From: an uncultured delta proteobacterium
Lineage (GTDB): Bacteria; Desulfobacterota; Binatia; UBA9968
NCBI GenBank assembly: GCA_963755715.1
Contig: CAVWLW010000001.1
Coordinates: forward strand, 1 to 64,000
Direction of reading: 5' to 3'
DNA length: 64,000 nt
This document shows, one piece after another, positions 3,282 to 38,965 of this stretch. The stretch's first letter is position 1. Each line of letters starts with the position of its first letter. The notes below the pieces were generated by a model that saw only the letters and a program-made list of their open reading frames with translations, ran no database searches and was not told where the DNA came from. Both the position numbers and the translations under genes were made by a program.

Positions 3282-3299
3282 ATTGGACCAAGGACCAAT
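3282..3299. promoter_or_regulatory. Palindromic operator copy 1 (ATTGGACCAAGGACCAAT, 1 mismatch)
   Basis: Matches the three other copies; ~154 bp upstream of the 3453 operon; TGATAATC at 3319. Confidence 0.7.
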
Positions 3300-3452
3300 A
3301 GAAAGATTTGCAACACTTTGATAATCAGAACCACAATTTGGTGGGTTGGTTGCTGGTCTCAAGAACTTTATCGTCAAGGCAATACGAAAGCCTGAGATCA
3401 ATTGCTGCAAAAATTCTAGCCCATCGCTTTGGGTATTCGAGGAAGGGCGTAA

Positions 3453-4873
3453 ATGTTAGATGTCATCGTCATTGGCGCCGGACCGGCGGGTGTGGTCGCC
3501 GCGCTCCGCGCCGCAGACCTGGGTGCCAAGACAGCACTCATAACGCGTGACGAGTTTGGCGGCATGGCGGCCAATGACGGACCGGTTCCGGTGCGCACAC
3601 TTGCCCATGCCGCTCGACTAATCCGAGAAGCCCGCCAGCTCGGTCAGTACGGCATCGCTGTCAGCGAGCCGGTGCTGGACTACGCGCGGTTGCTCGCGCG
3701 CGTGCGCGAGGTCGTTGACGATGTGCAAGCGCATTCTGCCTTTCGCGAGCAGATCGATTCCGTGGGAGTAACGGTTTACGACCGAGCCGGCGCCGCGCGG
3801 TTCACTGATCCGCACACGATCGAAACTGAAAGTGGGCTCAAGCTGCAGGCCGAAAAGATCGTCATCTGCACGGGCGGGGTGAGCCGGCGGCTCTCCGTTC
3901 CGGGATTTGAGCTCACCGCCACACATAGCGATGCATGGCGTTGACGGCCGTGCCGCCATCGATGTTAATCATTGGAGCTGGAGCGACAGGAGCGCAGGTC
4001 GCTTCGATATTCAATGCATTCGGTTCACGGGTCCAACTCTTTCAGGCAGGTCCGCGCATTTTGCCGACGGAGGACGAAGACGTTTCGACTGCGGTCGCAG
4101 CAGCCTTCCGTGAGTCGGGGATCGTGGTGCACGAGAATTTTGGTGCGATCGAATCCTTCGAGAAAACGCCGACCGGCGTGCGGATGATTTTCTCGAAAGA
4201 CGGTGTACGCAGCAGCGCTGAGGCGGCTCTCGCAGTGATAGCGGTCGGTTGGACGGCGAATACCGCCGCGCTAAATCTCGCAGCGGTAGGTGTCGAGACA
4301 AATGATAGAGATTTCCTGCGAGTGGATGCTTATCTGCGGACATCGGCAGCACATGTCTTTGCAGCTGGGGACGTCACCGGCCGCCTGATGCTGCTCCCAC
4401 AGGCAATACAGGACGGCTTCGTGGCGGGGACGAATGCAGTGCGAGACGCGGCGATAACATTGCCGAACGACGTAGCTCCGATCGGCAGCTTCACCGACCC
4501 GGAATATGCCCAAGTGGGCCTGACCGAAACGAAGGCGCGTGAAAAACACGATATCGTAACAGCGATTGTCCGCTTTAACTCGACTACGCGCACGATCATC
4601 GACGGGCGGACGGCCGGCTTCTGCAAGCTGATCGTCGAGCGCGCGACCTACAAAATTCTCGGCTGCCACGTCGTCGGCGAGCGGGCGATCGACATCACTC
4701 AGGTGGCGGCGGTTGCCATTGCCGGCGGAATGCGGGTCGATGAGCTGGCACGGGTTCCACTCTCGTTTCCCACCTACGCCGGGATCCTCGGTCGCGCGGC
4801 GGCAAGCGCGACTCGCCAGCTCAATCAGAAGGTGAGCTCGCAAGCGAACGAGGGAGAAGACTTTCAGCCCTAG
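3453..4873 (+). CDS. Pyridine nucleotide-disulfide oxidoreductase family flavoprotein lacking the redox cysteines (frameshift ~3938)
   Basis: GAGPAG FAD motif, IIGAGATG NAD motif, FAAGDV, FTDPEYAQVGLTE dimerisation domain; split over ORFs 3453-3944 and 3935-4873. Confidence 0.85.
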
Positions 4874-4892
4874 TCGGGCGCGCACGATTGTC

Positions 4893-5764
4893 ATGGAATT
4901 TATACAAAAAGCAGCGACTCTCTGCATGCTCGCGTTTGTCCTTTCCAGCATGCTGGCGATGGGTCTGGGTCTCACTGGCGGAGAGATAATCGCTCCGCTC
5001 CGTCGTGCTCGCCTGGTCACGCTGACGTTAGTCGCCAATTTCGTTTTGATGCCGGCTGCTGCTCTGGGCCTTAGCATCCTGCTTCGGCTCGACGAACCAC
5101 TCGGCGTAGGTCTCCTGCTATTGGGCACGGCGGCGGGCGCACCGTTTCTGCCGAAGCTGGCTCAACTGGCAAAGGGGGATCTGGCATTCGCGGTGGGCCG
5201 ATGGTGCTGCTGATGGTCATCACGGTCGGATATCTCCCAGTCGTGCTGCCGCTGTTCCTGCCGGGAGTTTCCGTTAATCCGGCGAAAATTGCGCGTTCAT
5301 TATTTTTGCTCATGCTGCTTCCGCTTGCCGGTGCCCTAGCGGTAAGAGCCTGGTTCCCAAATGTCGCGGGACGGACCAAACCTTTTCTCGATAGGTTTTC
5401 AAATCTGAGCCTTATTCTGCTGGTCGTGTTGATCACGATCGCGAACGTCAGCAACGTAGTGGCAGTGTTCGGCACGCGCGGTATTCTCGCCGGAATACTC
5501 TTCATTGCGACTGGGTTCGTTGTCGGCTGGTTTCTCGGCGGAGCGGACGCCAGCACCCGGCGGGTGCTGGCGTTGGGCACCGCGCAACGTAACATTGCGG
5601 CAGCGTTGGTCGTAGGTAGCCAGAGCTTCACAGATCCCAAAGTGGTCGTAATGGTGGTAGTCGTAGCAATCGTCAGCTTGCTGATTCTCATGCCACTATC
5701 CAGGAAATTGGCGAACTCTGTGTCTGACGACGCGAAACGCTCACCGGTGCTGCAACGCCCGTAA
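4893..5764 (+). CDS. Bile acid:sodium symporter (BASS) family transporter (frameshift ~5198)
   Basis: MLAMGLGLT, ANFVLMP, AAGAPFLPKL, GTAQRNIAAAL; multiple TM helices. Confidence 0.85.
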
Positions 5765-5910
5765 ACAAGAACAGATGGAGTCAATTAGTTAACAACCTGG
5801 AAGGAGACACAAGTGGCAGAAACAAACAAACGGAACGACTGGTCGATAGCATGACAGGGAATTGAGATATATCTGGTTCGCACATATTTACGAAAAGGAG
5901 ACTCATTTTT

Positions 5911-6450
5911 ATGCTGATAAAGCCACAGGCTATGGCGATGCCTAGCGACACCAAAACTTTGCCGCAAGGAAAGTATGGTCCTATCTTCCCAAAGTCCCCT
6001 GCCTGTTACGGGTTCACCATCATCGCGAAGGTAAAGGAGGGTCGCGAGGCAGCGGTGCGAGAATACGGCAAGACCATCGAAAAAGCCGTGGCAGGCCAGC
6101 CTGACTGCCTTGCGCCTCTCAAGCTTCATTATCTGCGTTGGGTGCTGTTCGACATCGGCTCGGGATTGCACTTCATGTATCAGGGAATCTTCGACACGGA
6201 CTTCGACAAATACACTGACGACGCGGTGGCCCTCTTCCTCAGCCTTGGGGTGAACACGGTGTTTGAAAACCTCGAAGGGTTTCCGATGGATTGGAAGACC
6301 AACCCCGACGCGTTTGTAAAATTCGTCAGGGAACACCAGTGCCCGAGCTTCCTTGAGTATAGCGAGTACCCCTTCTTCAGTGCCGACGAGATCAAGAAGG
6401 CGCTACAACTCAAGAGCGCGTTCACGGAGATGCTCGACCAAATGCAATAG
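5911..6450 (+). CDS. Conserved hypothetical protein, Dyp-associated
   Basis: RBS AGGAG, LHYLRWVLFD...FDTDFDKYTDD motif, position within the Dyp operon. Confidence 0.65.
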   Translation: MLIKPQAMAMPSDTKTLPQGKYGPIFPKSPACYGFTIIAKVKEGREAAVREYGKTIEKAVAGQPDCLAPLKLHYLRWVLFDIGSGLHFMYQGIFDTDFDKYTDDAVALFLSLGVNTVFENLEGFPMDWKTNPDAFVKFVREHQCPSFLEYSEYPFFSADEIKKALQLKSAFTEMLDQMQ

Positions 6451-6501
6451 CAGCACCTACGAAGCGCCGGCACGACAGTCGATAAAGAGAGGAATGACAA
6501 A

Positions 6502-6918
6502 ATGAGCACGGAAAATCCGCTGGCGGCAGTACACCAGTACATCGATGGCTTCAACAAAGGAGACGCACAGTTGATGGCGGCGACGTTCGCCGTCCCGGGA
6601 TCGATTCTTGACGGCATGGCGCCGCACGTGTGGCAGGGGCCAACCGCCACTCAGGATTGGTATAGAGACGTGTTGGTGGAAGGGGAGCAGCATGGCGCAT
6701 CCGGCTATCTCGTCACGCTGGGTAAAGCGCTGCATAACAAAATCACCGCCGAGAGCGCATATGTGGTTGTTCCCGCGACCATGACGTTCAAAGTTGACGG
6801 CAAACAGATTACCCAAACCGGCGCGGTCTTCACGGTGGCGCTTCGCAAGTTCATCGATGGATGGCACATCGCGGCTTGGGCCTGGGCTAAGGGCATTGCA
6901 CAGCAGACGAAAGCCTAG
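6502..6918 (+). CDS. NTF2/SnoaL-like protein
   Basis: YIDGFNKGD start, AYVVVPA..F, W.IAAWAW end typical of NTF2-like fold. Confidence 0.75.
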   Translation: MSTENPLAAVHQYIDGFNKGDAQLMAATFAVPGSILDGMAPHVWQGPTATQDWYRDVLVEGEQHGASGYLVTLGKALHNKITAESAYVVVPATMTFKVDGKQITQTGAVFTVALRKFIDGWHIAAWAWAKGIAQQTKA

Positions 6919-6992
6919 ACTTCTCGCGGAATATCGCTGCAGTGAAAATTGAGGACCTATCAGCGCACCAGAACCAGTTCGTGGAGGTTACC

Positions 6993-8307
6993 ATGCTTGA
7001 ACTTGATGACATTCAGAGCGGTGTTTTGCGCCCGCGGCCCACGCCTTACGTCGCCACCTACATCGCCTTCCGGATCGACGACCGCAAGGCCGGGCGTGAG
7101 TTAATGCGGCGCGTTTCTGGCGCGGTGACCTCCGCGGCCAACCCCACGAGCCCGCTGGCCGACACTTGGGTAAGTGTCGCACTCACCTACGAGGGTTTCA
7201 AAGCCCTCGGTGTGCCTCAAGAGTCGCTCGACAGCTTTTCGTGGGAGTTTCGTCAGGGGATGGCGGCGCGAGCCAAAGACCTTCACGACATTGGTGAGAG
7301 CGCACCCGAAAACTGGGAGAAGCCCTTGGGGACTGGGGATGTCCACGTGGTCATCGTCGCGGTGTCGCCGGACGAAGAGCAGCTCGAAGCGGCCCTCGAT
7401 CGGGCAAGAAAAGCCTATCGGTGAGATGACAGGGATCGAAGCTATTTGGCGTCAGAACTGCCACGCACTGCCAACCGAAACAGAGCCGTTTGGGTTCAGG
7501 GACGGCATAAGCCACCCCGCCATAGAGGGAAGCGGCATCGCTGGGAGTAACCCTCAGGAGCAGCCTTTCAAAGCCGGCGAGTTCGTGCTCGGTTATTCGG
7601 ACGAGATGGGCGGCGTTCAGAAAACCGTGCCCGAAGTCCTGGGCCGCAACGGGACGTATGTTGTCTTTCGCAAGCTGCATCAGCGCGTGGCTGCGTTCCG
7701 CCGCTACTTGAAGGAGAACTCCAAGGGGCCCGAAGATGAGGAGTTGACGGCGGCTAAGATGATGGGGCGCTGGCGCAGCGGCGCCCCCCTGGCGCTCTGC
7801 CCGCTTCGCGATGACCGGGAATTGGGCGCAGACCCGTTGCGCAACAACAACTTCCTTTTTCGGGAGGACGACCCGGACGGTTTCAAGACGCCTTGCGGCT
7901 CGCACATACGGCGGACAAACCCACGCGACGCAAAGATAGCGGGCATGGTGAGGATACACAGAATGATACGACGCGGAACCGCTTACGGCCCGCCGCTTCC
8001 CGAGGGCGTCCTCGAAGATGACGGTGCCGACCGGGGGCTGATATTCGCATTCGTTGGGGCACAACTCGGCAGGCAGTTCGAGTTTGTCCAGTCCGAGTGG
8101 GTTAACGACGGGGTCTTCATCGGGGCCGGGAAAGACAAAGACCCGGTCATCGGGTCTAACGGAGACGGTGGTGCGTTCACTCTCCCTCGCAGGCCGCTTC
8201 GGAAACGCTTCCAGGGCATCCCTAACTTCGTCGTCACTCGTGGCGGTGAATACTGCTTCATGCCGAGCTTGACCGCGCTGCGCTGGCTTGCAGACCTTAA
8301 AACCTAA
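6993..8307 (+). CDS. Dyp-type (dye-decolorizing) peroxidase (frameshift ~7422)
   Basis: LDDIQ start, EPFGFRDGISHP (GXXDG), GSHIRRTNPRD, RMIRRG, QFEFVQ, VTRGGEY; RBS GGAGG before ATG 6993. Confidence 0.9.
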
Positions 8308-9459: not shown

Positions 9460-9480
9460 GATTCCGGTATGCAGTCAGCC

Positions 9481-16024: not shown

Positions 16025-16046
16025 ATATTGGACCAAGGTCCAATAT
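16025..16046. promoter_or_regulatory. Palindromic operator copy 2 (ATATTGGACC-AA-GGTCCAATAT)
   Basis: Perfect 10-2-10 palindrome ~115 bp upstream of frdC. Confidence 0.8.
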
Positions 16047-16159
16047 TGCCGAATGTCATTTTAGTGATAGGAAGTTTCTCAGACGAAAAGCGTTCGAGAA
16101 GCTGAAAAATAGAATCAATTCGCGCGACCGTAAACGCGCAAACCATAGGAGCGCTGCCA

Positions 16160-16933
16160 ATGAACAACCAAGTCGATGTCATTGCCGGAACCGGTCTGGA
16201 CCTCAAAGCGCGAAAGAGTCACTGGCCGGCGCGCTTGGATTTTGCCCAGAGCGCGAGCGGATTGTTCTTGGGCCTTTTCATGTGGGGCCATATGGCTTTC
16301 GTGTCGACGATCCTGATCAGCAACGATGCCATGTGGTGGGTGACCAAGATGTTCGAGGGACAGTTTATCCTCGGCAAAGCCTATTCCGGCATCGTGGCTG
16401 CAGTCGTCGCCCTGGTTTCGTTTCTGTTCGTGCTCCATGGCTTGCTCGCCATGCGAAAATTTCCTTCGAACTTTCAAGAATACAAAAGTTTCGCCAGCCA
16501 CCGGCAAATGCTGCGCCATGAGGACACCACGCTCTGGTGGGTGCAGGCGTGGACCGGCTTTGCCCTCTTCTTTCTGGCTTCGGTTCATCTCTACCAGATG
16601 CTCATGCATCCCGGCGACATCGGCCCTTACGAATCGGCGGAGCGCGTGTGGAGCGGCCGCTGGTGGCCGCTGTATCTGGTCCTGTTGTTTGCCGTCGAGC
16701 TGCACGGCGGCGTCGGTCTATACCGGTTGGCGGTAAAGTGGGGCTGGTTCGAAGGCGAAGATCCGAATCGGACGCGCGTGATGCTCAAGCGGCTCAAATG
16801 GGCAATCACGATATTTTTCCTGACGCTCGGACTGCTCACCCTGGCGGCATACATGAAGCTCGGCCACGAGCGCCGCGATCGGCTCGGCGAGCGCTATGTG
16901 CCGACGCATCTCAGCGCACCGGGGAAAAATTAA
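16160..16933 (+). CDS. frdC: Fumarate reductase cytochrome b subunit, Wolinella-type diheme
   Basis: [47 protein letters not shown]. Confidence 0.92.
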
Positions 16934-16934
16934 A

Positions 16935-16960
16935 GTAGGGGCGACCGGCGGTCGCCCTAC
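16935..16960 (+). repeat. GTAG-type REP element
   Basis: GTAGGGGCGACCGGCGGTCGCCCTAC palindrome; related copies at 61050-61098. Confidence 0.7.
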
Positions 16961-16994
16961 AGGTTCCGCATCGCTAGCAAAAGAAGGTGGCTTT

Positions 16995-19010
16995 ATGAAA
17001 ATAATTTACACAGACGTTTTGGTCATCGGCGGCGGGCTCGCGGGTTTGCGCATCGGCATCGGCGCCAAACGGCGCGGCCAAGATGTGATCATTCTGTCAT
17101 TGGTGCCGCCTAAGCGCTCTCATTCAGCCGCGGCGCAAGGCGGCATGCAGGCAAGCCTCGCCAACGTCATCAAAGGCGAGGGCGACAACGAAGACGTGCA
17201 CTTCGAAGATACGGTGCGCGGCAGCGACTGGGGCGCCGACCAGCAAGTCGTGCGCATGTTCGTCGATACCGCTCCCAAAGCGGTGCGCGAGTTGGCGGCG
17301 TGGGGCCTACCCTGGAGCCGGATAACCAGAGGCGATCGCGACGTCATCATCAACGGGCAAAAAGTCACCATCACCGAGCGCGACGAAGCCCATGGGCTGA
17401 TCGCTCAGCGGGCCTTCGGCGGCACCAACAAGTGGCGCACCTGTTATGTTTCGGACGGCACCGGGCACGCCATGCTCAATACCATGAGCGATCAGGCGAT
17501 TGCCCAGAAGATACCCGTGCATGAACGAGCCGAGGCGATTGCTTTGATCCACGACGGCAGTCGTTGCTACGGCGCAATCGTGCGCAATCTTGTTACCGGC
17601 GAATTGCTAGCCTACGTCGCCAAGGCCACCGCCATTACCGGTGGCGGCGCGGGGCGGCTCTACCGCGTGACCACCAATGCGGTGATCTCCGAAGGGATTC
17701 CCACTGCCATTGCGCTCGAGACCGGTATCGCTACCCTCGGCAATATGGAGGCGGTGCAGTTTCATCCGACGCCGGCCTTTCCTCCTGGAATTCTGCTCAC
17801 CGAGGGCGCCCGTGGCGACGGCGGGCTGCTCAAAGACGTCGACGGTCATCGCTTCATGCCGGATTACGAGCCGGAGAAAAAAGAGCTTGCCTCGCGCGAC
17901 GTGGTCTCGCGCCGTATGGAAGAGCACATCGCCAAAGGCAAGGGCGTGAAGTCGCGCTTCGGCGAACACCTGTGGCTGGATATCACGCTCCTGGGCGAGC
18001 ACCACATCAAGCACAACCTGCGCGAGGTTTACGAGATCTGCCACTATTTTCTCGGCGTCGATCCGGTGAAGGAGTGGGTGCCGGTGCGGCCGGCGCAGCA
18101 CTACACCATGGGCGGCGTGCGCACCAACCACACCGGTGAAAGTCCGACGCTCAAAGGGTTGTTTTCCGCGGGCGAAGCGGCCTGCTGGGACATGCATGGA
18201 TTCAACCGCCTGGGCGGCAACTCGGTGGCCGAGACGGTGGCGGCCGGCATGATCGTCGGCGAGTTCATCGCTGATTTCTGCGAGCGGTCCGACCCGGGGG
18301 CGAGTATCCCCACCAGTCTGGTTCAGGAAACCTTGCAGCGCGAGCAAGCGAAGATCGATGCCTTGATCGACGGCCGGGGCACGGAGAACGCCGCCGCGAT
18401 CATGGCCGAGATGCAGACGATCATGACTAATAAGGTCGGCATCTTTCGCAGGGGCCCAGTGTTGGAAGAGGCGGTGCACGGGCTGCAGCAGCTTCTGTTG
18501 CGCAGCCGCAACATCGGCCTGCGCTACAAGGCGCGCGGCGCCAATCCGGAGCTGGTGACGGCCTACCGGGTGCAGAAAATGCTCAAGATGGCGCAGTGCG
18601 TCGCCTACGGGGCGCTCCAGCGAACCGAAAGCCGCGGCGCTCACTTCCGCGAGGACTTTCCGCGCCGCAACGACGCCGAATGGCTGAACCGCACCTTGGC
18701 GACATGGAAATCGGAAAGCGACACCCTGCCGTCGCTCGCCTACGAAAAACTCGATGTCATGAAAATGGAGCTACCGCCGGGCTGGCGCGGCTACGGCGCC
18801 AAGGATCACATCGATCATCCCGATACGCCCAGGCGTCTCGCCGAGATCGAAGCGCTCAAGCAGCGCCGCGACGGCGCCGATCGTTTCGCGGTGCAAGAGC
18901 AGCTGATGCCCTACGACCATCTGTTGCCCAAACCTTTGCGCGGCAGGAATGAACGGATCGACGAAAGATTGACCGAGCGTGCCTCGCCTGGAGATCTAAG
19001 AACGCGATGA
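16995..19010 (+). CDS. frdA: Fumarate reductase flavoprotein subunit
   Basis: [16 protein letters not shown] (covalent FAD His), [30 protein letters not shown]. Confidence 0.95.
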
Positions 19011-19086
19011 GGCGCGCCTCTTATCGTCGCCTCGGCGCCGTTGGCGTTCCCGAGCGCTGAGCTGAAAAATAGAAAGGAGCATCGCC

Positions 19087-20484
19087 ATGGCTGAGACTCG
19101 GATCGAAAAAGATACCATGGGCGACATTGCGGTCCCGGCGGACCGCTACTGGGGAGCGCAGACCCAGCGTTCGCTGAAATATTTCCAGGCCGGGGCGGGG
19201 CGGGACACGATGCCGAGAGAGCTTATCAAAGCCCTCGGTATCCTGAAAAAGGCCGCGGCCATGGCCAATGTCGAGCTGAAACTTTTAGATAAGGAAAGAG
19301 GCGACATGATCGCTCAGGTCGCCGACGAAGTTGTCTCGGGAAAGCTGGACGAGCACTTCCCGTTGGTCATTTGGCAGACCGGCTCGGGCACCCAGACCAA
19401 CATGAATGCCAACGAGGTGATCAGCAACCGGGCCATCGAAATTTCCGGCGGCGTAATGGGAAGCAAAAAACCGATTCACCCCAATGACGACGTCAACAAA
19501 GCGCAAAGCTCCAACGACACCTTTCCCACCGCGATGCATATCGCTGCGGTGGAAGTTCTGGGCGCTCTGGTCGAGGCGTTGAAAGATTTGAAGAAGCACC
19601 TGGAGGACAAGGCGAGTGCCTATGGAAAGGTAATCAAGATCGGCCGCACGCACTTGATGGACGCAACGCCGCTCAGCCTCGGACAGGAAATTTCCGGTTG
19701 GGCGCAGATGGTGGACAACGACCTGCAGCGCATCGCAATGACACTTCCTGGTCTTTATGAGCTGGCCATCGGCGGCACGGCGGTGGGCACCGGGCTCAAC
19801 ACACATCCCGATTTCGCGGCCAAGGCCGCGGCGAAGATCGCCGAGTTGACCAAACAGCCGTTCGTCAGCGCGCCGAACAAGTTCGAGGCGCTGGCCGGCC
19901 ACGACGCGCTCGTCTTTGCCCACGGCGCGCTCAAAACGCTGGCCTGCTCTCTGATGAAGATCGCCAACGACGTGCGTTGGCTCGCCTCGGGGCCGCGGGC
20001 GGGCCTGGGCGAAATCAGCATCCCGGAGAACGAGCCGGGAAGTTCTATCATGCCGGGCAAAGTGAATCCGACGCAGAGCGAGGCGCTCACGATGATCTGC
20101 GCGCAGGTGTTGGGCAACGACGTGGCTATCAATATCGGCGGCGCCAGCGGCAACTTCGAGCTTAACGTCTTCAAGCCGCTGATGATCCACAACTTCATTC
20201 ATTCGGCCAAGCTTTTGGCCAAGGGGGTCGAGGGCTTCACGCACCATTGCGTCGCGGGCCTCCAGCCCAACGCCGCCCGCATCGACGAGCTGATGAAGAA
20301 AAGCTTGATGCTGGTCACCGCGCTCAATCCGCACATTGGCTACGACAACGCCGCCAAGATCGCCAAGAAGGCCCATGCCGAAGGCACGACACTCAAGGAA
20401 GCAGCAGTGGCGCTGGGCCTGGTGAAAGCTGAGGATCTCGACAAGTGGATCAAGCCCGAAGAAATGATCAAGCCGGGGATGTGA
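19087..20484 (+). CDS. fumC: Fumarate hydratase class II
   Basis: [45 protein letters not shown]. Confidence 0.95.
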
Positions 20485-20563
20485 AATCCGTAAGAGTGAC
20501 AAGGGTCGAGTGCGAGTGGGGAGTACATCAGCTTTCAAGGTTTCAGTGTTCAGGTTTCAGTAT

Positions 20564-20704
20564 AACCAACAGGCTGTTGAAAAAGGTTCGGAATGCTTCG
20601 AGAACCTCAGCATGAACGGAAAATCGTCAATGATATCAAAACTCCCCGTTCGTCCTGAGCTCAGTCGAAGGACTCCTAGCAAGTTTTTCAACAGCCTGAA
20701 CCAA
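20564..20704. mobile_element. MITE with perfect 15-bp TIRs and 6-bp target-site duplication
   Basis: CAGGCTGTTGAAAAA (20570-84) / TTTTTCAACAGCCTG (20684-98), flanked by AACCAA on both sides. Confidence 0.8.
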
Positions 20705-20773
20705 AACCTGACACCTGACACCCGATCTCTCTACCTGAGGAAAAGCGGTTTTTTGCAATGAAGGAGACTGACA

Positions 20774-21514
20774 ATGAAAAATGAACCCGTGAAACGACAG
20801 CTAAAGATCAGCGTTCTGCGCTTCAACCCGCAGGATCCGCAGAGCGAACCGCACATGCAGACTTATGAGATCGAGGAAGCGGAGGGCATGACGCTGTTCA
20901 TCGCTCTCATGGAGATTCGCGAGAAGCAGGACCCGTCGCTGGAGTTCGACTTCGTGTGCCGCGCCGGTATCTGCGGCAGCTGCGGCATGATGGTCAACGG
21001 CAGCCCGACGCTCGCCTGCCGTACGTTGACGAAGGACCAGGGCACCGAGATCTCGCTGGCGCCACTGCCGGTCTTCGAGCTGATCGCGGACTTGTCGGTG
21101 GATACCGGCAAATGGATGCGCGGCATGAGCGAGCGTTTGGAGACCTGGCTGCACATGAAGGAGCAGGAGCCGGATCTGCGCCTGCTGGAAGAAAGAATGG
21201 AGCCGGAGCTGGCGGAAAAAATCTACGAGCTCGACCGCTGCATCGAGTGCGGCTGCTGCGTCGCGGGCTGCGGCACGGCGCGCATGCGCGAGAATTTTGT
21301 CGGCGCGGTGGGACTCAATAAGATCGCCCGGTTCCGGATCGATCCGCGCGACCGGCGCACCGATGATGACTACTACGAATTGATCGGGGACGACGACGGC
21401 GTTTTCGGCTGCATGTCCCTTATCGCGTGCCACGACGTGTGCCCAAAGAACTTGCCGCTGGCGACGCAGATCGCGTTTCTCAGACGTAAAATGGTCTCCA
21501 TGGGATGGAAATGA
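20774..21514 (+). CDS. frdB: Fumarate reductase iron-sulfur subunit
   Basis: [27 protein letters not shown]. Confidence 0.95.
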
Positions 21515-21576
21515 TCGAGGATAGAGTGTCGGGTGTCGAGTGTCCGGACCCCTCGACACCCTCGACCCTCAATCCC
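21515..21576. repeat. Inverted heptamer array (GTGTCGA)n...(TCGACAC)n
   Basis: gagtgtcgggtgtcgagtgtcc/ggacccctcgacaccctcgaccc; same family at 36423, 39411 and 40027. Confidence 0.7.
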
Positions 21577-21619
21577 TGCTTTCGAGCAGGTTAACTCTAC
21601 CTGATGAAAGGTCGCGAAC

Positions 21620-23090
21620 ATGAATATTACCTGGAAACATTTTGCGCCGATCGTGGTCGGGATCGTTATCGCTCTTATCCCCGCGCCGACAGGGCTGCCG
21701 CAGCATGCATGGTATTACTTCGCCATTTTCGCCGCGGTGATTGTCGGTTTGATGCTCGAGCCCTTGCCGGGCGGCGCCATCGGATTGATCGGCGTGACCC
21801 TCGTGGCGAGGCTTTCCGAATACGTTTTCTACTCGCCGGAGCAACTCGCAAAGCCGGGTTTTAATCCAGACAGTGCCTCCTTGAGCTGGGCGCTTTCGGG
21901 CTTCTCCAATGCCACCGTGTGGCTTATTTTCGGCGCGTTCATGTTTGCCCTCGGTTACGAAAAAACCGGTCTCGGACGGCGCATCGCGCTGATGCTGGTA
22001 AAATCGATGGGGCGAAAGACGCTGACCCTCGGCTATGCGGTTGCCATTGCCGATACGATTCTTGCGCCGTTTACTCCGTCGAGCACCGCGCGCAGCGGCG
22101 GTACGATCTATCCGGTGATTAAAAATTTGCCGCTCCTTTATGATTCGAAACCCGACGACCCTTCCATGCGCCGGATCGGCTCCTACCTCATGTGGGTGGC
22201 GATCGCGCCGATCTGCGTAACCAGCACGATTTTTCTCACCGCGTCTTGCTCCCAACCTTCTGGCTGTGGAGCTGGTCAAGAAAACGGCAAAGATCGAACT
22301 CGAATGGTTCGACTGGTTTATGGCTGCGCGCGCCGGCGGGCATCTTGCTGCTCGGTTTTTGTCCTTTGCTTGCCTATTGGCTCTATCCGCCCGAAGTCAA
22401 GGAAGGTGCGGAGGTCTCGGAGATGGGCGGGAAAGGAACTCGTCAAAATGGGCGGCATTACCGGGAAAGAGATTATCCTTGGGGTGCTGGTAGTCCTCGC
22501 CCTGGTGATGTGGATCTTTCGAGGGGACGAAGTGAACGCTACCACAGCGGCGCTGATCATAATTTGCCTGATGCTCGTGACGAACATCGTCACCTGGGAT
22601 GACATCACGAAAAACTTCGCCGCCTGGAACACTCTGGCTTGGTTCGCGACCCTGGTTGCGCTTGCCGACGGGCTCGCTCGTGTCGGTTTCGTGAAGTGGT
22701 TTGCCGACGACTGTGGCGACCCACATGAGCGGCTTTACGCCGCTGAAGGCAATCCTGGTACTGCTCTGATCAATTTTTTCTGCTCACTACCTGTTCGCCA
22801 GCGTTACCGCGCATGTTACGGCGCATGATTCCGGTGCTGCTTGCGGTCGGCTCGACGATCCCTGGCATCAACATGCAGCACTCTATCGATGCTTCTGTGC
22901 CTCCAGTTGGGAATCATGGGCATCATCACGCCCTACGCGCAGCGGTCCAAGCCCGGTCTACTATGGCAGCGGTTACCTACCGTCGGCTGACTACTGGCGA
23001 CTGGGCGCGATTTTTGGATTGATCTTTTTTGTCGTATTTATGTTGACTTCGGTGCCTTGGGTGCTCGATACGGTGGCTAAGTATTTAATC
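21620..23090 (+). CDS. DASS family (CitT/TtdT-like) di/tricarboxylate anion permease, several frameshifts
   Basis: WALSGFSN..VWLIF.AF, KTGLGRRIAL, PFTPS.TARSGG, AWNTL.WFATLV. Confidence 0.85.
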
Positions 23091-23130: not shown

Positions 23131-24543
<1,413 letters not shown>

Positions 24544-27979: not shown

Positions 27980-28149
27980 GACGTGAAATGCAAATGTCTG
28001 GCAAGAATAATTTTCTCCGGTCGGCTCTGCTCTTCATCGCTTGAAATTCGAGACAATTCGGACAAAGCAAAAATCGGAGGCACAAATCCACATGCGAATT
28101 TTCGCTGAAGGACATGCGGTTACGAAACAAAAGCGTAGCAAGGAAAGCG

Positions 28150-29569: not shown

Positions 29570-29624
29570 GGCGTCGAATCTTCAACTTATTAATCCTCGC
29601 ACCCCGGCGCAGGCGCGGGCTCCA

Positions 29625-29642
29625 ATTGGACCAAGGTCCAAT
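29625..29642. promoter_or_regulatory. Palindromic operator copy 3
   Basis: ATTGGACCAAGGTCCAAT ~99 bp upstream of sixA. Confidence 0.8.
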
Positions 29643-29740
29643 ATACGTGCTTCCCGCCATTTGCTTATATAAGAGTCATAGCGACGGATTGTGAAGAAAT
29701 CGACACGTTAAGAGTCCAGGCCGTAAACTGAGATCCGGTT

Positions 29741-30248
29741 ATGAATCTATACTTTATGCGTCATGGCATCGCGGTGGACCGCGCTGATAGCGGCGCCGGC
29801 TCCGGCGATCGGGAGCGGCAGCTGACCCCGAAGGGGATTAAAAGAATGAACAAGGCAGCCAAAGGTCTGGCCACTTTGTCGCTCTACTTTCGAGCGAATC
29901 CTCACCAGCCCTCTGGAGCGCGCGCGCCAGACTGCAAAGATCGTGGCGCAGATCCCTCACTTGGAAGACCGCGTAGAAGAAATCGAGCAGCTCTCACCCG
30001 AACAATCGGCCCAAGATCTATTGTCCGGCTTGGTTGCCTACTCGGGCAAAAAGGAAATTCTCCTGGTGGGTCATGAGCCGCAATTGAGCAGCACGATCTC
30101 CGTTCTATTGTCAGGGACGTCGGGAGCGGTAATTCGCCTTAAAAAGGGTGGGCTATGCTGCCTGCAAGTGGATGGATTGCCGCCGCGAGAAAGCGCGGTT
30201 TTGCACTGGGCGTTGACACCCAAGCAACTGCGCCTGATGGCGCATTGA
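29741..30248 (+). CDS. sixA: Phosphohistidine phosphatase SixA (frameshift ~29888)
   Basis: YFMRHG, R.LT.KG, LLVGHEP, LKKGG. Confidence 0.87.
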
Positions 30249-30293
30249 ATCGATCGCAAACTCGGGATCGGCGAAGTTTGAAAAGAAAAAATA

Positions 30294-31304
30294 GTGGAAG
30301 AGGAGAAAGAACAAGAACTCGGATCGGCAGGGGTTGGCAATGCGGACCCTGCCATCCCTTTTGTGCAGACGCTTCCTTCCCTAACCATTCGTCGCGCGCT
30401 TGCGCGTTTACTGCGCAAACGAGTCAAGAAGTTTGTCGCGTTGGCGCCGGAAATACGTGCCGACGCGAATCCGAAAACCGTCCATGATGTGCGCGTTTGG
30501 AGCCGACGCTTGCAGCAAGCCCTCGGCGCGTTTTTCCCCAAGCCGCGTTCTGGGAAAGTGCGGCGCTTGCGCCGGACACCTCGACGGATTCGGCGCGCGC
30601 TCGGCGAATGGCGCAACTGCGATGTCCTGCTCGAAATCGTCGCGCGGCAACAACGCCGCACGCGTAGTGAGGACAAGCGACGGGCTTGGGAGTTTGTTCG
30701 CGATTACCTATTGCAGAGGCGTACTAAGGAGGTTGCCCGCGCGGGGAAAAGACTGCTGCGCCAGGACCTGGAAAGTTACGCTGCCTTGGCGCGTCGACTG
30801 CTCGGTCAATCACCCGACGAGAGCCCCGAGATCCTGATGCGACGACTCGTCGATAGCGTGCAGAAAGCGTGGGGCAAGTGGCAATCCGCCCTGACCCGCG
30901 CGCAGGAAACTCACGCGGTTAAAGATCTGCACGCGTTTCGTGTCGCGACCAAAGATCTACGCTACCGGACGGAGCTTCTTTACGCCGTCGGTCACAGGGA
31001 AATTAAGGCCCAGCTCAAATGGCTGGCAGAATTGCAGGACGCCATCGGCGTCTGGCACGACCGTCAAGTACTTTATCAAGCCGTTGCCAAAGCCGTCGCG
31101 CGTGCCGAAGTCTTGCTGAACGAGCTGTCAACCGTGCGCATACTTTTGGCGCAATTGGAAAAGGATCGTAGCTTGCAGGCTAAAGATGTCGAGAAGATAT
31201 TTCGCCTGGCGATGGAGCATGCGGGGAATTATCAGATGGAAAGTTCGAGCGAAACCCATGCGACCCCGACGCCATCCGCCGTCACTGAATTGCTAAGCGA
31301 CTAA
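30294..31304 (+). CDS. CHAD domain (polyphosphate-binding) protein
   Basis: VHDVRVWSRRL, LG..RNCDV, LHAFRVATKDLRY, LQDAIGVWHD. Confidence 0.88.
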   Translation: MEEEKEQELGSAGVGNADPAIPFVQTLPSLTIRRALARLLRKRVKKFVALAPEIRADANPKTVHDVRVWSRRLQQALGAFFPKPRSGKVRRLRRTPRRIRRALGEWRNCDVLLEIVARQQRRTRSEDKRRAWEFVRDYLLQRRTKEVARAGKRLLRQDLESYAALARRLLGQSPDESPEILMRRLVDSVQKAWGKWQSALTRAQETHAVKDLHAFRVATKDLRYRTELLYAVGHREIKAQLKWLAELQDAIGVWHDRQVLYQAVAKAVARAEVLLNELSTVRILLAQLEKDRSLQAKDVEKIFRLAMEHAGNYQMESSSETHATPTPSAVTELLSD

Positions 31305-31333
31305 ACGTGAATGATTGACCAGGAGGTAACTCT

Positions 31334-32245
31334 GTGAACAACAAAGATATGAAAAATTTGATCAAGAAGGCGCGCAAGTTCGCCAAGCCTTTCCGCGTGA
31401 CCGACGATAAATTTCGCCTGAAGGACATCGATCCCGGCGACACCCTCGACTTTACATCCGAGGACAAGCCGCGCGCCAAGGAAGCGCTCGCCATGGGCGT
31501 CGATGTGTTGGCCGAGCTTCAGGACATGCTTTACGCCCAGGACAATTGGGCGGTGCTGCTGATCTTCCAAGCGATGGACGCCGCCGGAAAAGACGGCGCG
31601 ATCAAGCATGTCATGTCCGGCGTCAACCCGCAGGGCTGCCAGGTTTTCTCGTTCAAGTCGCCCACCAGCGAAGACCTCGACCACGATTACCTTTGGCGAT
31701 GCATAAAGTGTCTGCCCGAGCGCGGCCGCATCGGCATTTTCAATCGCAGCTATTACGAAGAGACCCTGGTCGTGCGGGTGCATCGGGAATTTTTAGAGAA
31801 GCAGAAGCTGCCGCCCGACCTGATCACGAAAGATATCTGGAAGGAACGTTTTCAGGATATCCGCAGCTTCGAGCGCTACCTGACGCGCAACGGCGTCGCC
31901 ATCCGCAAGTTCTTTCTCCATGTCTCCAACAAAGAGCAAAAGAAGCGGTTCCTCGAGCGCATCGAGGAGCCCGAAAAAAACTGGAAGTTTTCCGCCAACG
32001 ACGCCAAGGAGCGCCAACATTGGGACGATTATATGGAAGCTTACGAAGACATGATCCGGAGCACCGCGACAAAAGCGGCGCCGTGGTACATCGTGCCGGC
32101 GGACAACAAATGGTTTACCCGCGTCGTTGTCGCCGCCGCCGTCATCGAAGCGCTCGACTCACTCAATCTCAAATATCCGAAAGTGAGTGAAAGCAAGTTG
32201 AAAGAGCTGGCAGGGGCAAAGCGGGCGTTACAGGCTGGGAAGTGA
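31334..32245 (+). CDS. ppk2: Polyphosphate kinase 2 family
   Basis: QAMDAAGKDG, HDYLWR, IFNRSYYE, KNWKFS. Confidence 0.92.
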   Translation: MNNKDMKNLIKKARKFAKPFRVTDDKFRLKDIDPGDTLDFTSEDKPRAKEALAMGVDVLAELQDMLYAQDNWAVLLIFQAMDAAGKDGAIKHVMSGVNPQGCQVFSFKSPTSEDLDHDYLWRCIKCLPERGRIGIFNRSYYEETLVVRVHREFLEKQKLPPDLITKDIWKERFQDIRSFERYLTRNGVAIRKFFLHVSNKEQKKRFLERIEEPEKNWKFSANDAKERQHWDDYMEAYEDMIRSTATKAAPWYIVPADNKWFTRVVVAAAVIEALDSLNLKYPKVSESKLKELAGAKRALQAGK

Positions 32246-32419: not shown

Positions 32420-34100
32420 ATGAATCAACATCCGACAGACGCAAAGGCAAGTCAGTCCGGCGCCACCGCACTGCGCTTCGACGTGATCGCCGGCCTGACA
32501 GCCGCGGCGGTTGTTCTTCCGAAGGCCATGGCCTACGCGACGGTTGCCGGCTTGCCGATTGCGGTCGGTCTCTATACCGCGTTCATCCCGATGGTGATTT
32601 ACGCGCTGCTCGGCTCGTCGCGGGTGCTGAGCGTCAGCTCCACTACCACACTGGGGATCCTGGCCGGCACGCAGCTCGGTCTGGCGGTGCCGGACGGCGA
32701 CCCGGCGAAGCTCGTCACGGCGACGGCCACCCTCACCGCGTTGGTCGGCGCGATGCTGCTCCTGGCGCGGCTGATGCGCCTGGGATTTGTCGCCAACTTC
32801 ATTTCCACGTCGGTCCTGACAGGCTTCAAAGCGGGGATCGGTGTCGTGATCGTGCTGGACCAGATGCCGAAGCTCCTGGGAATCCACATCGCGAAGCAAG
32901 GCTTTTTCCACGACCTTCTCAGCGTTGCGCAGCACGTCCCCGAGACCTCGCTATTGACGCTTGCGGTCGCTGCCGCGACGTTCGCTGGTGCTGATCGGCA
33001 TGGAGCGGCTATGGCCGCATTCTCCGGCGCCGCTGGTCGCCGTTGGCGGCGGCATCGCCGCGGCGTGGTTCTTCGGCCTGCAGGCGCTGGGAGTCTCGAC
33101 AGTCGGCCTGATCCCGCAGGGATTCCCGGCGCTCACGCTGCCGGATCTTGCGCTGGTCGAGCAGTTGGTGCCGGGGGCTCTCGGGATGGCGCTGATGAGT
33201 TTCACCGAATCGATCGCGGTGGGTCGCGCCTTTGCCCGCCCTGACGATCCACCCATCGATGCCAACCGCGAACTGGTCGCCACCGGGGCGGCCAATCTCG
33301 GCGGCGCGCTGTTCGGTGCGATGCCGGGCGGCGGCGGCGCCTCGCAAACCGCGGTCGTGCGCGCCGCGGGAGGCCGGTCGCAAAAGGCTTCGCTGGTGAC
33401 GGCGAGCGCCGCGGCGGCGACCATGCTGCTGCTGGCACCCTTGCTGGGTTTATTGCCAAACGCCACGCTGGCAGCGGTCGTCATTGTCTACTCGGTCGGG
33501 CTGATCCAGCCGGTGGAATTCCTTACCATTCGCAAAGTGCGCAGGATGGAGTTTCGCTGGGCGATCATCGCGGTGCTCGGCGTGCTGATCTTCGGCACGC
33601 TGAAGGGCATCGTGGTGGCGATCATCGTATCGCTGATTGGCCTGTCCAGCCAGGCCGCCTACCCGCGCGTGTCCGTCATCGGCCGCAAGCGCGGTGCCGA
33701 CGTGCTGCGACCGCTGTCGCCCGAGCACCCGGACGACGAGACCTTCGAGGGCCTGCTGATCGTGCGGCCGGAGGGACGGCTCTTCTTCGTCAACGCGCAG
33801 TATGTGGCGGACCAGATCGGCGCACTGGTCACGCAGCACAAGCCGCGCGTGCTGGCGTTGGACATGAGCCGGGTATTCGATATCGAATACTCGGCACTGC
33901 AAATGCTGATAGAGCGCGATAAGCGCGCGACCGAACGCGGCGCCGTTGTCTGGCTGGTGGGACTGAATCCCGGCGCGCTCGAGGTCGTGCGCAACGCCGG
34001 GCTGGACCGGCAACTCGGCCGCGAGCGCATGCTGTTCAACGCGCGCGAGGCGATCGAACGCTACCAGGCGCTGCAGGCGAAGGCGGGCGGCGCGTCCTGA
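32420..34100 (+). CDS. SulP family anion transporter with STAS domain (frameshift ~32985)
   Basis: DVIAGLT, P.AMAYA..AGLP..VGLY, DANRELVATGAAN, C-terminal STAS domain. Confidence 0.9.
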
Positions 34101-36412: not shown

Positions 36413-36422
36413 AAAGAAGTGA

Positions 36423-36743: not shown

Positions 36744-37115
36744 ATGAAAGCAAAAGTTTTCATAGTCATAGCGATAGCCCGTTTTGCAATAGCCGTCGTA
36801 GCAGTGCCGATTATCGTCACGGGCTGTGCCGTCTATGAGCCCGTCCCTGCTTACGCGCCTCCTGCTAACAGCTTTGAGCGGTCGTGGACCGCTGCCGTAG
36901 GAGCGGCGCAAGATGTTGGTATTCGCATCGCGTCTGAAGATCGGGCGCGGGGAGTTATCACCGGCGCCAACGATAGCCGCGATGTAACGATCACTGTCGT
37001 GACCCAGGCGGACGGAAGAGTTCGCGTGGAGATCTCAGCGCGCGGGCCTCAAGGTGGGGATGCGAATTTGGCCAACGATATCTCGCGCGCTTACGACCGG
37101 CGCATGGGACGATGA
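36744..37115 (+). CDS. Small lipoprotein, paralog of 41194-41577
   Basis: Lipobox VTGC; shared C-terminus ISRAYDRRMGR. Confidence 0.75.
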   Translation: MKAKVFIVIAIARFAIAVVAVPIIVTGCAVYEPVPAYAPPANSFERSWTAAVGAAQDVGIRIASEDRARGVITGANDSRDVTITVVTQADGRVRVEISARGPQGGDANLANDISRAYDRRMGR

Positions 37116-37262: not shown

Positions 37263-37538
37263 ATGACGAAACTTTTTGACACGCTTCGGCAGTTCCCGCT
37301 GGCGTTTGGGATCTTGTTTTGGCTCAGTAGCGCAGCGGCTGCGCACTCCGGAATCACCGATGGCTATGGATGCCATCGCGGTCCGGACAAAGTCAGCTAT
37401 CACTGTCACCAGGGGCAGTTCGCTGGCCGGACGTTTAAATCGAAAGAGGAGTTTCTGCGCCAGTTGCGCGGCGGTAAATCCGAACAATTGTCGCCGAAAA
37501 ACAACCCGCCTCTGGTGGAGAAGAAAAGTGAGAAGTAG
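37263..37538 (+). CDS. Small exported YHYH-like protein
   Basis: Signal peptide then HSG.TD..GCH...YHCH. Confidence 0.6.
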   Translation: MTKLFDTLRQFPLAFGILFWLSSAAAAHSGITDGYGCHRGPDKVSYHCHQGQFAGRTFKSKEEFLRQLRGGKSEQLSPKNNPPLVEKKSEK

Positions 37539-37616
37539 ATTTTAGCTCACGGGCTTGCGCAGAAACCTTATCCAGAGTTGCGAACCACAAACGCTAATAG
37601 CGAAAAATCCGCCGTT

Positions 37617-37800
37617 GACCAAGACGATCCGCACTGGCGCGATTTGATCCTCTTCCATGAATACTTCCACGGTGATAACGGCGCCGGGCTCGGCGCCAGC
37701 CACCAGACGGGGTGGACGGGCCTGGTCGCGCGCCTGCTCGACTTGTTCGGGCGTGTCGACACCAAAGACCTGGAGCTGGAAATCGAGCAAGTTGCTCCTA
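37617..37800 (+). pseudogene. C-terminal relic of an MGH1-like (GH63) glucosidase
   Basis: [35 protein letters not shown] with no upstream body. Confidence 0.8.
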
Positions 37801-38000
37801 GGCCTGGCTCATCAGGGAGCAGGTGGGCGGAGAAAAGACGGCCGGGAAGTGAAGAAGCGGGCGCAATGCGCGATCCATTAAATCCTGTTCGTATTGCCGA
37901 TCGACATTCGTGCTTATTATACTCGTCTCCGCAATTTCATGTCCGGCGAAGCCTGGAAGCACAAGGTAATTAAATAGCCACTATAAAGGAAGTTGCCGAT

Positions 38001-38396
38001 GTGAATATGAATTGCTCCAATAAAATGACGCTCGGTGTTCTCTTGCTGAGCCTTCTTACACTTTATGGCTGTGAGGACCTGGTTATACGCGACACGTCGA
38101 GCCTGTTCATCCCCAGGTTTCAACGGTCCGAGATCCTTGGCTTTGTGGCGGGATTTGGAACGACCTTTGCCGCCGTGCCAGACTTAGTCGCAATGCTCAA
38201 GCGGCGGTCAAGCGCGGGGATGAACCCGAGGATGGCGGGCATCATCGGTGTCTTTCAAATAGCCTGGGTCTACTACGGCTTGTTGATTGCTTCACGGCCG
38301 GTGATCCTATGGAACCTTATGGGGATAGTCATCAATTTCGTGAGCGTCGGCGCGTACCTATATTTCCGCAAAGCCAAGCAGTACGCAGTGAAGTGA
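38001..38396 (+). CDS. SemiSWEET/PQ-loop family small transporter
   Basis: GFVAGFGTTFAAVP, W.YYGLLI...PVILWN. Confidence 0.75.
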   Translation: MNMNCSNKMTLGVLLLSLLTLYGCEDLVIRDTSSLFIPRFQRSEILGFVAGFGTTFAAVPDLVAMLKRRSSAGMNPRMAGIIGVFQIAWVYYGLLIASRPVILWNLMGIVINFVSVGAYLYFRKAKQYAVK

Positions 38397-38947
38397 TCGC
38401 GCCGACCGGCCGAGCGATGGAAGTTATTCTCAGATCGCGCAAGACATCAAGAACGTGGCAGGGAAGGAGGACATTGATACTGAACTGATGCAGCTGGTTC
38501 TGGCCATCTTGAACTCGGCCGATAATCTCAAGACCAACGGCCATCTCAAGTGGAAGAGCTCCATCATTCAAACTGTTGTGTCTACCGCGGTTATGAGCCG
38601 ACCAATCAAGTTATCCAGACTTTCAATTTTCTCGACAGCCGGGGATACAAAATAACCCGGAAGTAAAGGCGCGTACGGTGCTCCGCTTCGTTCTCTCTGC
38701 AGCATCGAGGTGGCCCGGTCATGACCGTCAGATGATCTTGGCGAAATCGGAGTGTTAAATTCCCTATTCCAAAATTCCATTCTCTAATAAATGTTGTGGT
38801 TTAGCATGATCAAGCTGTTGTAGCTTTTGGGGATCCTTTGATTGGGGCTTTGCTGCGCAAGGTCTCCGTGGTGAATCCTCCTTCAGGGAAATTCAGAACA
38901 AACGAAATGCGGATCTTGAATTTCTCCTTTAGAACGTGCGTACTCCT

Positions 38948-38965
38948 ATTGGACCAAGGTCCAAT
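38948..38965. promoter_or_regulatory. Palindromic operator copy 4
   Basis: ATTGGACCAAGGTCCAAT ~111 bp upstream of the DUF1622 gene; TGGTACAT at 38986. Confidence 0.8.

Follow-up and report, generated by a model that had tools for sequence, protein, structure and literature searches.

The first 64,000 nucleotides (forward strand) of contig CAVWLW010000001.1 from an uncultured delta proteobacterium (assembly GCA_963755715.1; Desulfobacterota, Binatia, UBA9968), hereafter the window, contain four copies of an 18-bp dyad, referred to below as the operator, each of which precedes a run of co-directional genes. Judged by the features described below, the most likely user of these sites would be a switch protein of the FixJ/NarL type that turns genes on. 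An earlier note on this DNA had reported the same dyad at four positions, three copies being exact and one carrying a single mismatch, and the search recovered precisely these:

3282..3299, + strand, operator copy 1, ATTGGACCAAGGACCAAT, one mismatch
16027..16044, + strand, operator copy 2, exact
29625..29642, + strand, operator copy 3, exact
38948..38965, + strand, operator copy 4, exact

The exact copies read ATTGGACCAAGGTCCAAT, and the mismatch of copy 1 falls in its promoter-proximal right half (GGACC for GGTCC). The AA centre is on the + strand in all four, so that their orientation is identical. None of 100 dinucleotide-preserving shuffles of the window matched its count of the 18-mer (shuffle mean 0.02). 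A looser 16-mer, TTGGACCWWGGTCCAA, allowed up to three mismatches, retrieved only the same four sites (shuffle mean 0.52; none of 100 shuffles with four or more), and no weaker copies within three mismatches were present elsewhere in the window; the shuffles of both patterns rule out a chance origin of the four copies. Extra half-sites at 94 and 15400 lie within open reading frames (ORFs) and are chance-like, while matches resembling GGWCC-WW-GGWCC at 11398, 39811 and 40436 have the wrong arrangement. The window matches no Rfam family, which rules out an RNA element.

All four copies are intergenic, each lying between + strand genes, and the distance from the end of the dyad to the following start codon is 154 nt (3453), 116 nt (16160), 99 nt (29741) and 111 nt (39076), within the range of 99–154 nt given previously. 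The operons behind them, with gene assignments based on Pfam and NCBIfam families, are as follows:

3453..8307, + strand, operon 1, five genes/ORFs
3453-4873, + strand, class I pyridine-nucleotide-disulphide oxidoreductase, first gene of operon 1, frameshift-split
4893-5764, + strand, SBF-type transporter (operon 1), split
5911-6450 and 6502-6918, + strand, two ORFs without a family (operon 1)
6942-8307, + strand, DyP-type peroxidase (operon 1), split
16160..22828, + strand, operon 2, fumarate reductase, fumarase and transporter genes
16160, + strand, fumarate reductase cytochrome b (operon 2)
16896, + strand, fumarate reductase flavoprotein (operon 2)
19087, + strand, class II fumarase (operon 2)
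20774, + strand, fumarate reductase Fe-S subunit (operon 2)
21620, + strand, DASS-family dicarboxylate transporter (operon 2)
23107-24543, + strand, aspartate ammonia-lyase, after operon 2 on the same strand
29741..32245, + strand, operon 3, SixA-like, CHAD and PPK2 genes
29741-30248, + strand, SixA-like phosphohistidine phosphatase (operon 3), frameshift-split, weak match
30294, + strand, CHAD-domain protein (operon 3)
31334, + strand, PPK2 family polyphosphate kinase (operon 3)
39076..43185, + strand, operon 4, extent inferred from strand and spacing only
39076, + strand, DUF1622 membrane protein (operon 4)
39626, + strand, DUF202 membrane protein (operon 4)
40159, 40892 and 41194, + strand, three small ORFs (operon 4)
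41620, + strand, B12-binding radical SAM/DUF4070 protein (operon 4)

The description of operon 1 as a DyP cassette holds only in part: the peroxidase gene does belong to the operon, but the first gene is the oxidoreductase and the peroxidase lies 3.5 kb downstream. No Crp/FixK gene is found behind any of the window sites.

In order to find out whether the dyad is confined to this organism, we scanned other genomes, one per species, for exact 18-mers with the pattern ATTGGACCWWGGTCCAAT. At least 121 loci in about ten phyla were found; the listed loci, to which all counts below refer, came with flanks of up to 2 kb for 80 and of 300 bp for 41 of them. They include Burkholderiales (Paraburkholderia, Caballeronia, Roseateles, Ramlibacter and others), Alpha- and Gammaproteobacteria, Desulfobacterota/Syntrophobacteria-like 'delta' metagenome-assembled genomes (MAGs), Binatia, Acidobacteriota, Rokubacteria, Verrucomicrobiota, Planctomycetota and Bacillota; single MAGs of Actinomycetes and of an archaeon were also hit, the archaeal site having an AT centre. 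Of the 122 distinct sites, 113 have AA/TT at the centre, against 50% expected (binomial p = 5e-24). Since chance matches would give AA/TT half the time, the rare AT/TA sites (9/122) bound the share of chance matches. By blastn the window shares only short stretches with these loci, 73–81% identical, the five loci concerned (L022, L030, L042, L066 and L080) belonging to a 'Deltaproteobacteria' MAG, two Binatia MAGs, a Desulfobacteraceae MAG and one unclassified MAG. Copies may also cluster elsewhere: one contig of Paraburkholderia haematera has three exact copies within 6 kb (L096, L100 and L101), another locus (L074) has two within 1.6 kb, and in a third (L105) two oppositely oriented copies are separated by 165 bp, as with divergent promoters. 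The presence of four sites within 36 kb of the window is in keeping with this clustering.

The earlier note had called the motif undescribed, and text searches with the motif, its halves and spaced forms agree, yielding unrelated primers or nothing; no published description came up in this full-text search, which did not extend to figure logos, supplements, subscription and other non-CC papers or curated motif databases.

The flanks of the listed loci also point to a candidate regulator. When the protein with a receiver and a GerE helix-turn-helix domain (REC+GerE) encoded beside one of the sites (L054) was compared to all ORFs of these loci, an orthologous regulator whose GerE domain scored at least 66 bits was found to adjoin 16 of the 120 distinct sites, and a more distant one that of L049. 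This genomic context supports a factor of the NarL/FixJ family (GerE helix-turn-helix), the family to which the earlier note had pointed. In 14 of the 16 loci the regulator gene ends just before the site and is co-directional with the promoter defined by the AA centre; in L054 it is divergent from the site, and in L004 the centre is TA with the gene order unchanged. HisKA and HATPase domains were present in all 11 ORFs scanned upstream of the regulator, seven of which also had PAS_3, the others being cut by the end of the flank or carrying TPR. A single-domain receiver is often encoded directly behind the site, so that PAS kinase, regulator, operator/promoter and receiver typically follow one another in this order. 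This module occurs in Bacillota, Acidobacteriota, Rokubacteria, Verrucomicrobiota, Burkholderiales and others, and the regulator group spans at least six phyla. The receiver recalls Caulobacter FixT, a single-domain receiver with a Cys cluster. Thirteen of the receivers were aligned: the acidic pocket, the phospho-acceptor Asp and the Lys-Pro are conserved, and none of the 13 shares a conserved Cys, which rules out a Cys-cluster receiver of the FixT kind.

Compared to proteins of solved structure, the regulator is closest to StyR (197 bits), followed by FixJ (150), NarL (74) and DevR (56). The NCBIfam FixJ model gives 229 and 199 bits to regulators of this group and does not reach its equivalog cut-off of 255. 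The kinase core is nearest to FixL (172 bits against the FixL portion of a chimera; 259 bits with the NCBIfam FixL model). Next to this core lies a PAS domain whose matches are FixL residues 26–134 (PAS-A) and, in a LOV kinase, the second of the PAS domains; a haem-PAS sensor is not supported by these alignments, the N-termini of the kinases lying beyond the 2-kb flanks.

The specificity of the linked regulator could be approached through its recognition helix, SEKTVKVHRARVMEKM, which is conserved with close variants across the regulator group. At the level of the GerE domain the best solved structures are FixJ (60 bits), StyR (59) and EL222 (50), with DevR at about 26–28 bits. The recognition helix itself is closest to that of EL222, SEKTVKMHRGLVMEKL, with which it is nearly identical, SEKTVK-HR--VMEK being common to both; the corresponding helices of Sinorhizobium meliloti FixJ and of StyR are SPRTVEVHRANVMAKM and AEVTVKVHRHNIMQKL. 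According to the accessible part of PMC10521638, the 12-bp consensus of EL222 is RGNCYWWRGNCY, and the core of the dyad, GGACCAAGGTCC, meets it at 12 of 12 positions.

A different GerE protein might nevertheless read the operator in this genome, either a one-component PAS/LOV-HTH protein such as EL222 or a DevR-like regulator of the NarL family. The window has no regulator gene, EL222 is itself a one-component protein of matching specificity, and DevR/OsdR boxes have the GGAC-N4-GTCC register in the portion of the literature available; all of this would suit such a protein. Against it, only one orthologous REC+GerE group is repeatedly linked to the sites, in the 16 loci and at least six phyla given above, and DevR is distant over both the whole protein and the GerE domain. 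We therefore regard this possibility as unlikely.

For analysis of the promoters, the 112 distinct listed sites with an AA/TT centre were oriented with AA on the top strand. Information in the flanks is confined to two places, the edges of the dyad and motif positions 41, 42 and 46. The former extend the dyad to about 22 bp, with C in 55 and T in 56 of the 112 sites at positions -2 and -1, and with A (55) or T (40) at position 19 and G (62) at position 20. The latter correspond to a -10 hexamer of the form TAnnnT (T41 in 58, A42 in 77 and T46 in 71 of 112). Of 111 sites, 42 have the start of this hexamer at position 41, 13 have it at position 42 and five at position 40, while every other offset is represented by 0–4 sites. 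Within one position of 41, TAnnnT is found on the AA-downstream side in 62 of 113 sites and on the mirror side in 12 (Fisher p = 8e-13); in the former it begins 22 nt (±1) after the dyad. The non-palindromic AA centre consequently predicts the direction of the promoter. The skew is evident in Betaproteobacteria (17/33 vs 2), in the delta-like group (18/27 vs 2) and in Acidobacteriota (5/9 vs 2), as well as in Bacillota and Rokubacteria (3/3 each).

In the window, a TA stands at motif positions 41-42 (copy 3282) or 42-43 (copies 16027, 29625 and 38948), and the candidate -10 elements are:

3322..3327, + strand, TAATCA, motif positions 41-46, TG-N1 before it
16068..16073, + strand, TAGGAA, motif positions 42-47, TG-N1 before the TA
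29665..29670, + strand, TTATAT, motif positions 41-46 (TATATA at 42-47), TGC before it
38989..38994, + strand, TACATC, motif positions 42-47, TG-N1 before the TA

The TG-N1-2-TA element that the earlier note placed 31.5–32.5 bp from the dyad centre is seen at all four window sites, with the TA at 32–33 bp; across phyla the extended -10 TG is not enriched (G39 in 33/112). A spacer of 17 nt puts the -35 hexamer at motif positions 18-23, where the window sites have poor matches (TAGAAA for copy 3282; TATTGC, TATACG and TGGTGC for the others). A scan of the four intergenic regions gave neither a consensus sigma-70 promoter nor a clear terminator before the sites. With this spacer, and on the assumption that transcription starts 7 nt after the -10 element, the dyad would extend from about -52 to -35 and be centred near -43.5, which is the position expected for a class II activator. 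The same position had been proposed from the four window sites, and it is supported by the fixed distance to the -10 in 62 of 113 sites of other genomes.

A site reaching the -35 region could also serve a repressor of the same family, in which case the four operons would be de-repressed when the protein leaves the DNA. The dyad does extend to the -35 position, and EL222 represses from a site within the core promoter (PMC5001607, as far as its text was accessible). However, a repressor needs neither a -10 spacing fixed to ±1 nt, as in the 62 of 113 sites, nor a poor -35, and the two together are typical of activator-dependent promoters. Moreover, the dyad is located upstream of the -35 and not between -35 and -10, the arrangement from which, in the same source, EL222 represses; with its site over the -35 of the luxI promoter, EL222 activates. 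Phosphorylated StyR has its high-affinity activating site some 40 bp before the start point (PMC2442086, in the portion available), and LuxR-type proteins likewise activate from such a position (PMC5001607). These cases provide precedents for activation of the class II type from sites at -40 or overlapping the -35, and repression appears quite improbable.

The dyad may also be read as TTGGA-N6-TCCAA, the site of a CRP/FNR-type or other dimeric factor without a GerE domain. Class II CRP sites have a 5-6-5 spacing and a centre near -42, and a Crp-family gene adjoins the site of one locus (L065), whose centre is TA. This is, however, the only such neighbour among 120 loci, and its centre is atypical; the 5-N6-5 reading leaves the invariant inner CC..GG unexplained, while the linked regulator and the EL222 consensus account for all 12 core positions. 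Such a factor is very unlikely.

A non-regulatory repeat (a miniature inverted-repeat transposable element, MITE, a repetitive extragenic palindrome or a recombination site) or chance is hardly credible: the copies are highly alike, three being exact, but the element measures only 18–22 bp with flanks that are not conserved, no shuffle out of 100 reaches its count, all copies lie upstream of genes in one orientation, and across phyla it has been kept together with a phased -10. Membership of a larger repeat had been named in the earlier note as an outcome that would speak against an operator. In an alignment of the four copies with 150 nt on either side, the likeness stops at the dyad, save for an upstream CTC and a downstream T-rich/TA stretch. 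The CTC lies 3–5 nt before the dyad (3277-3279, 16022-16024, 29620-29622 and 38943-38945), one base farther upstream at site 1. The four window sites have it in common and the cross-phylum set does not show it; either a peculiarity of the lineage or chance may account for it.

With sites that are kept across phyla, stand at a fixed and directional distance from a -10 element and are linked to a kinase–regulator–receiver module, and with a core that fits the experimentally known specificity of the homologous helix-turn-helix of EL222 (as given in the accessible text), the dyad is probably the operator of a response regulator of the FixJ/StyR branch with an EL222-type helix, located at a class II activator position. 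In the proposed mechanism, a PAS histidine kinase with a FixL-like core would phosphorylate the dimeric regulator, which would then bind the 18–22-bp dyad at about -52 to -35, abutting the poor -35 hexamer. The bound regulator would recruit RNA polymerase to the -10 element 22 nt past the dyad, in the manner of LuxR and other class II activators. In the window it would co-activate the oxidoreductase/DyP operon, frdCAB-fumC with the dicarboxylate transporter, the sixA-CHAD-ppk2 operon and the operon running from DUF1622/DUF202 to the radical-SAM gene. In many other genomes the same promoter would drive the single-domain receiver gene directly behind the regulator gene, the receiver probably acting as a feedback phosphate sink or kinase inhibitor. 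That the linked regulator binds the site and activates rather than represses is what the gene neighbourhoods and promoter geometry suggest, and the window's own genome presumably carries the regulator.

Several observations weigh against this reading. The window's own genome is not among the listed loci, and no response regulator, GerE-domain or REC+GerE gene was found among the ORFs of the 64 kb. The link to the regulator rests on a minority of loci, 104 of 120 having no regulator nearby, although a missing regulator beside most sites is expected of ordinary regulon members. The skew of TAnnnT is weak in Binatia (2/8 listed sites) and absent in Alphaproteobacteria (3/11 vs 3 mirrored), and in 12 of 113 sites it is the mirror side that carries a -10. 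Near a regulator homologue that is 62% identical, on a replicon of Caballeronia insecticola, no site with up to three mismatches occurs within 6 kb on either side, and that of Paraburkholderia phenoliruptrix has only a site with two mismatches, 1.6 kb off; at about 60% identity these homologues, on two annotated replicons, are uninformative. Finally, a site that overlaps the -35 could also repress.

Whether the operator defines an ancient, undescribed regulon across phyla appears to us evenly poised. Such a regulon would consist of the three-gene module, a near-invariant operator of 18–22 bp whose AA centre sets the direction, and variable redox, respiratory, polyphosphate and envelope targets, and would range over Proteobacteria, Desulfobacterota-like bacteria, Binatia, Acidobacteriota, Rokubacteria, Verrucomicrobiota, Planctomycetota and Bacillota. 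As a rule, a two-component regulon is restricted to one lineage and its operator drifts, but this operator, 18 bases long, does not differ by a single letter from Bacillota to Burkholderiales and comes with a phased -10 and a recognisable cognate module. A signalling system that is widespread among soil and sediment bacteria and has yet to be characterised thereby becomes open to testing, and the information content of the site is high enough for a simple pattern search to predict regulon members, whatever the genome. The DNA-binding domain of EL222 is a widely used optogenetic tool, for which natural targets and response-regulator relatives are hereby provided. In this organism, fumarate respiration, a peroxidase/oxidoreductase operon and polyphosphate metabolism may be tied to one switch.

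In order to get an insight into the kind of genes that follow the operator elsewhere, Pfam scans were performed on 86 downstream and 67 opposite-side ORFs of the listed loci; the choice of ORF was naive (the longest one starting within 450 nt), and single assignments can be wrong. Besides standalone receivers and further kinases, the targets include pyridine-nucleotide-disulphide oxidoreductases with a rhodanese domain, superoxide reductase followed by 2-oxoacid:ferredoxin oxidoreductase (in three Bacillota MAGs), Fe/Mn superoxide dismutase, and cytochrome bd (at a site with an AT centre). NhaA, MIP channels, Asp-Al_Ex and AI-2E transporters and HlyD-type proteins are likewise represented, as are BON, Gly-zipper, OmpA, Omp85, PqiA, DUF3300, DUF3313, DUF4136 and ecotin. 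Orn/Lys/Arg decarboxylase, phospholipase D and B12 radical-SAM/DUF4070 proteins were also found. Several window genes have homologues beside sites in other genomes: the EipA-like gene at 35969 (L012, L042, L043 and L063), PPK2 at 31334 (L032) and the radical-SAM gene at 41620 (L080). The paralogous ORFs 36744-37115 and 41194-41577 (123 and 127 residues) match no Pfam or NCBIfam family, yet homologues 50–76% identical to them stand beside the operator in four MAGs (L012, L022, L042 and L071).

This mix of targets has a redox/respiratory as well as an envelope/osmotic flavour, and does not single out hypoxia. Because the kinase-proximal PAS resembles the non-haem PAS-A of FixL and the targets are mixed, the hypoxia or nitric oxide signal suggested in the earlier note is unsupported; redox or oxygen-related stress is a possible input signal.

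Other features of the window are described here for completeness. Nearly all predicted genes from 32 to 46988 are on the + strand, and those from 47179 onwards mostly on the - strand. The + strand stretch holds two NrfA-type genes, a molybdopterin oxidoreductase complex and the four operons headed by the operator. The full NrfA gene is at 1633-3060. An in-frame TGA at 9457-9459 joins an ORF without a Pfam family (8566-9459) to 9469-9726, a C-terminal fragment of cytochrome c552 (NrfA), and could be a sequencing error, a pseudogene or recoding. Another in-frame TGA, at 10629-10631, interrupts the molybdopterin oxidoreductase gene (10128-13088) in the context ..HQARL*HSSTVAG.., both parts being in the same frame. 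It looks like the selenocysteine codon of a catalytic subunit of the formate-dehydrogenase kind. Genes for a 4Fe-4S protein (13085), NrfD (13891) and cytochrome c (14987) lie behind it. At least eight window genes are split by frameshifts, namely those for the pyridine-nucleotide-disulphide oxidoreductase, the SBF transporter, DyP and the SixA-like protein listed above, and the following:

28114-29569, glucose-6-phosphate dehydrogenase (G6PD), frameshift-split
32420-34100, SulP, frameshift-split
53173-54773, NicO-like, frameshift-split
56153-57695, DUF4331, frameshift-split

Three of the split genes are first or key genes of operons headed by the operator. So many frameshifts point to indel errors in a long-read assembly more than to decay. 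A cluster at 52665-61041, unrelated to the dyad, encodes, besides a truncated globin (52665) and a cupredoxin (58497), NicO-like, TPR and DUF4331 proteins. It is adjoined by genes for an ECF sigma factor (59747) and an RskA-type anti-sigma factor (60310); these, the only sigma/regulator genes of the window (59747-61041), are unlikely partners of the dyad.

The system may be compared with several that are known. It is like FixL-FixJ in that the kinase core is nearest to FixL and FixJ is the top NCBIfam model of the regulator, and differs in that the regulator stays under the equivalog cut-off and the kinase-adjacent PAS matches the non-haem PAS-A of FixL rather than the haem-binding PAS-B. The accessible text of PMC4999443 and PMC13327599 describes alphaproteobacterial FixJ motifs (GTACGTAG) and an 18-bp imperfect palindrome before fixK, and mentions a FixT homologue of Rhodopseudomonas palustris. 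The motifs so described differ from the dyad, which rules out a canonical FixJ motif. In the parts available, a review of hypoxia sensing (PMC12071387) has no motif that resembles the dyad, and a preprint on a haem PAS-HTH protein (10.64898/2026.03.15.711900) gives a different, G-rich one.

The earlier note had recognised in the core GGAC-N4-GTCC the geometry of the mycobacterial DosR/DevR box. The register does agree with that of the DevR/OsdR boxes of the Mycobacterium and Streptomyces dormancy regulons in the accessible part of PMC5069765, where the consensus is a 16-nt palindrome and the listed sites include AGGGACCTTCGGCCCC. Both systems would combine a GerE-family regulator with a palindrome of 16–18 bp and GG(G)AC/GTC(C)C arms, and the OsdR/DosR targets available in that text overlap in kind with those found here (CoA-disulphide reductase and a DksA-type zinc finger). 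Beyond the common inner register, the outer arms are ATT..AAT instead of G-rich, and the linked kinases combine PAS_3, HisKA and HATPase, where kinases of the DosS/DosT type have GAF. No genes for universal stress proteins (USP), alpha-crystallin or nitroreductases lie behind the window sites, and the USP, small heat-shock and nitroreductase Pfam families are missing from the 84 window ORFs scanned. With DevR at 56 bits against 197 for StyR and 150 for FixJ, a system of the DosR/DevR type does not hold.

Among the regulators of aromatic degradation (StyS/StyR and TodS/TodT), StyR provides the best solved-structure match to the linked regulator. StyR differs in serving one catabolic promoter, together with IHF, and in its recognition helix (AEVTVKVHRHNIMQKL); no styrene or toluene genes were found here. 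LuxR at the lux box is similar in that, in the accessible text of PMC5001607, a GerE dimer covers an inverted repeat of 18–20 bp over the -35 of a sigma-70 promoter and RNA polymerase is recruited; it differs in being driven by a ligand, not by phosphorylation, and in its recognition sequence. EL222, the LOV-HTH protein of Erythrobacter litoralis and the closest in recognition helix, is a one-component, light-driven protein, and its consensus stems from in-vitro and chromatin immunoprecipitation work in one alphaproteobacterium; the helix-turn-helix considered here is attached to a phospho-receiver under a PAS kinase. The natural site is longer than that of EL222, 18–22 bp with ATT/AAT arms and an AA centre, and, unlike the latter, heads a multi-operon regulon in many phyla.

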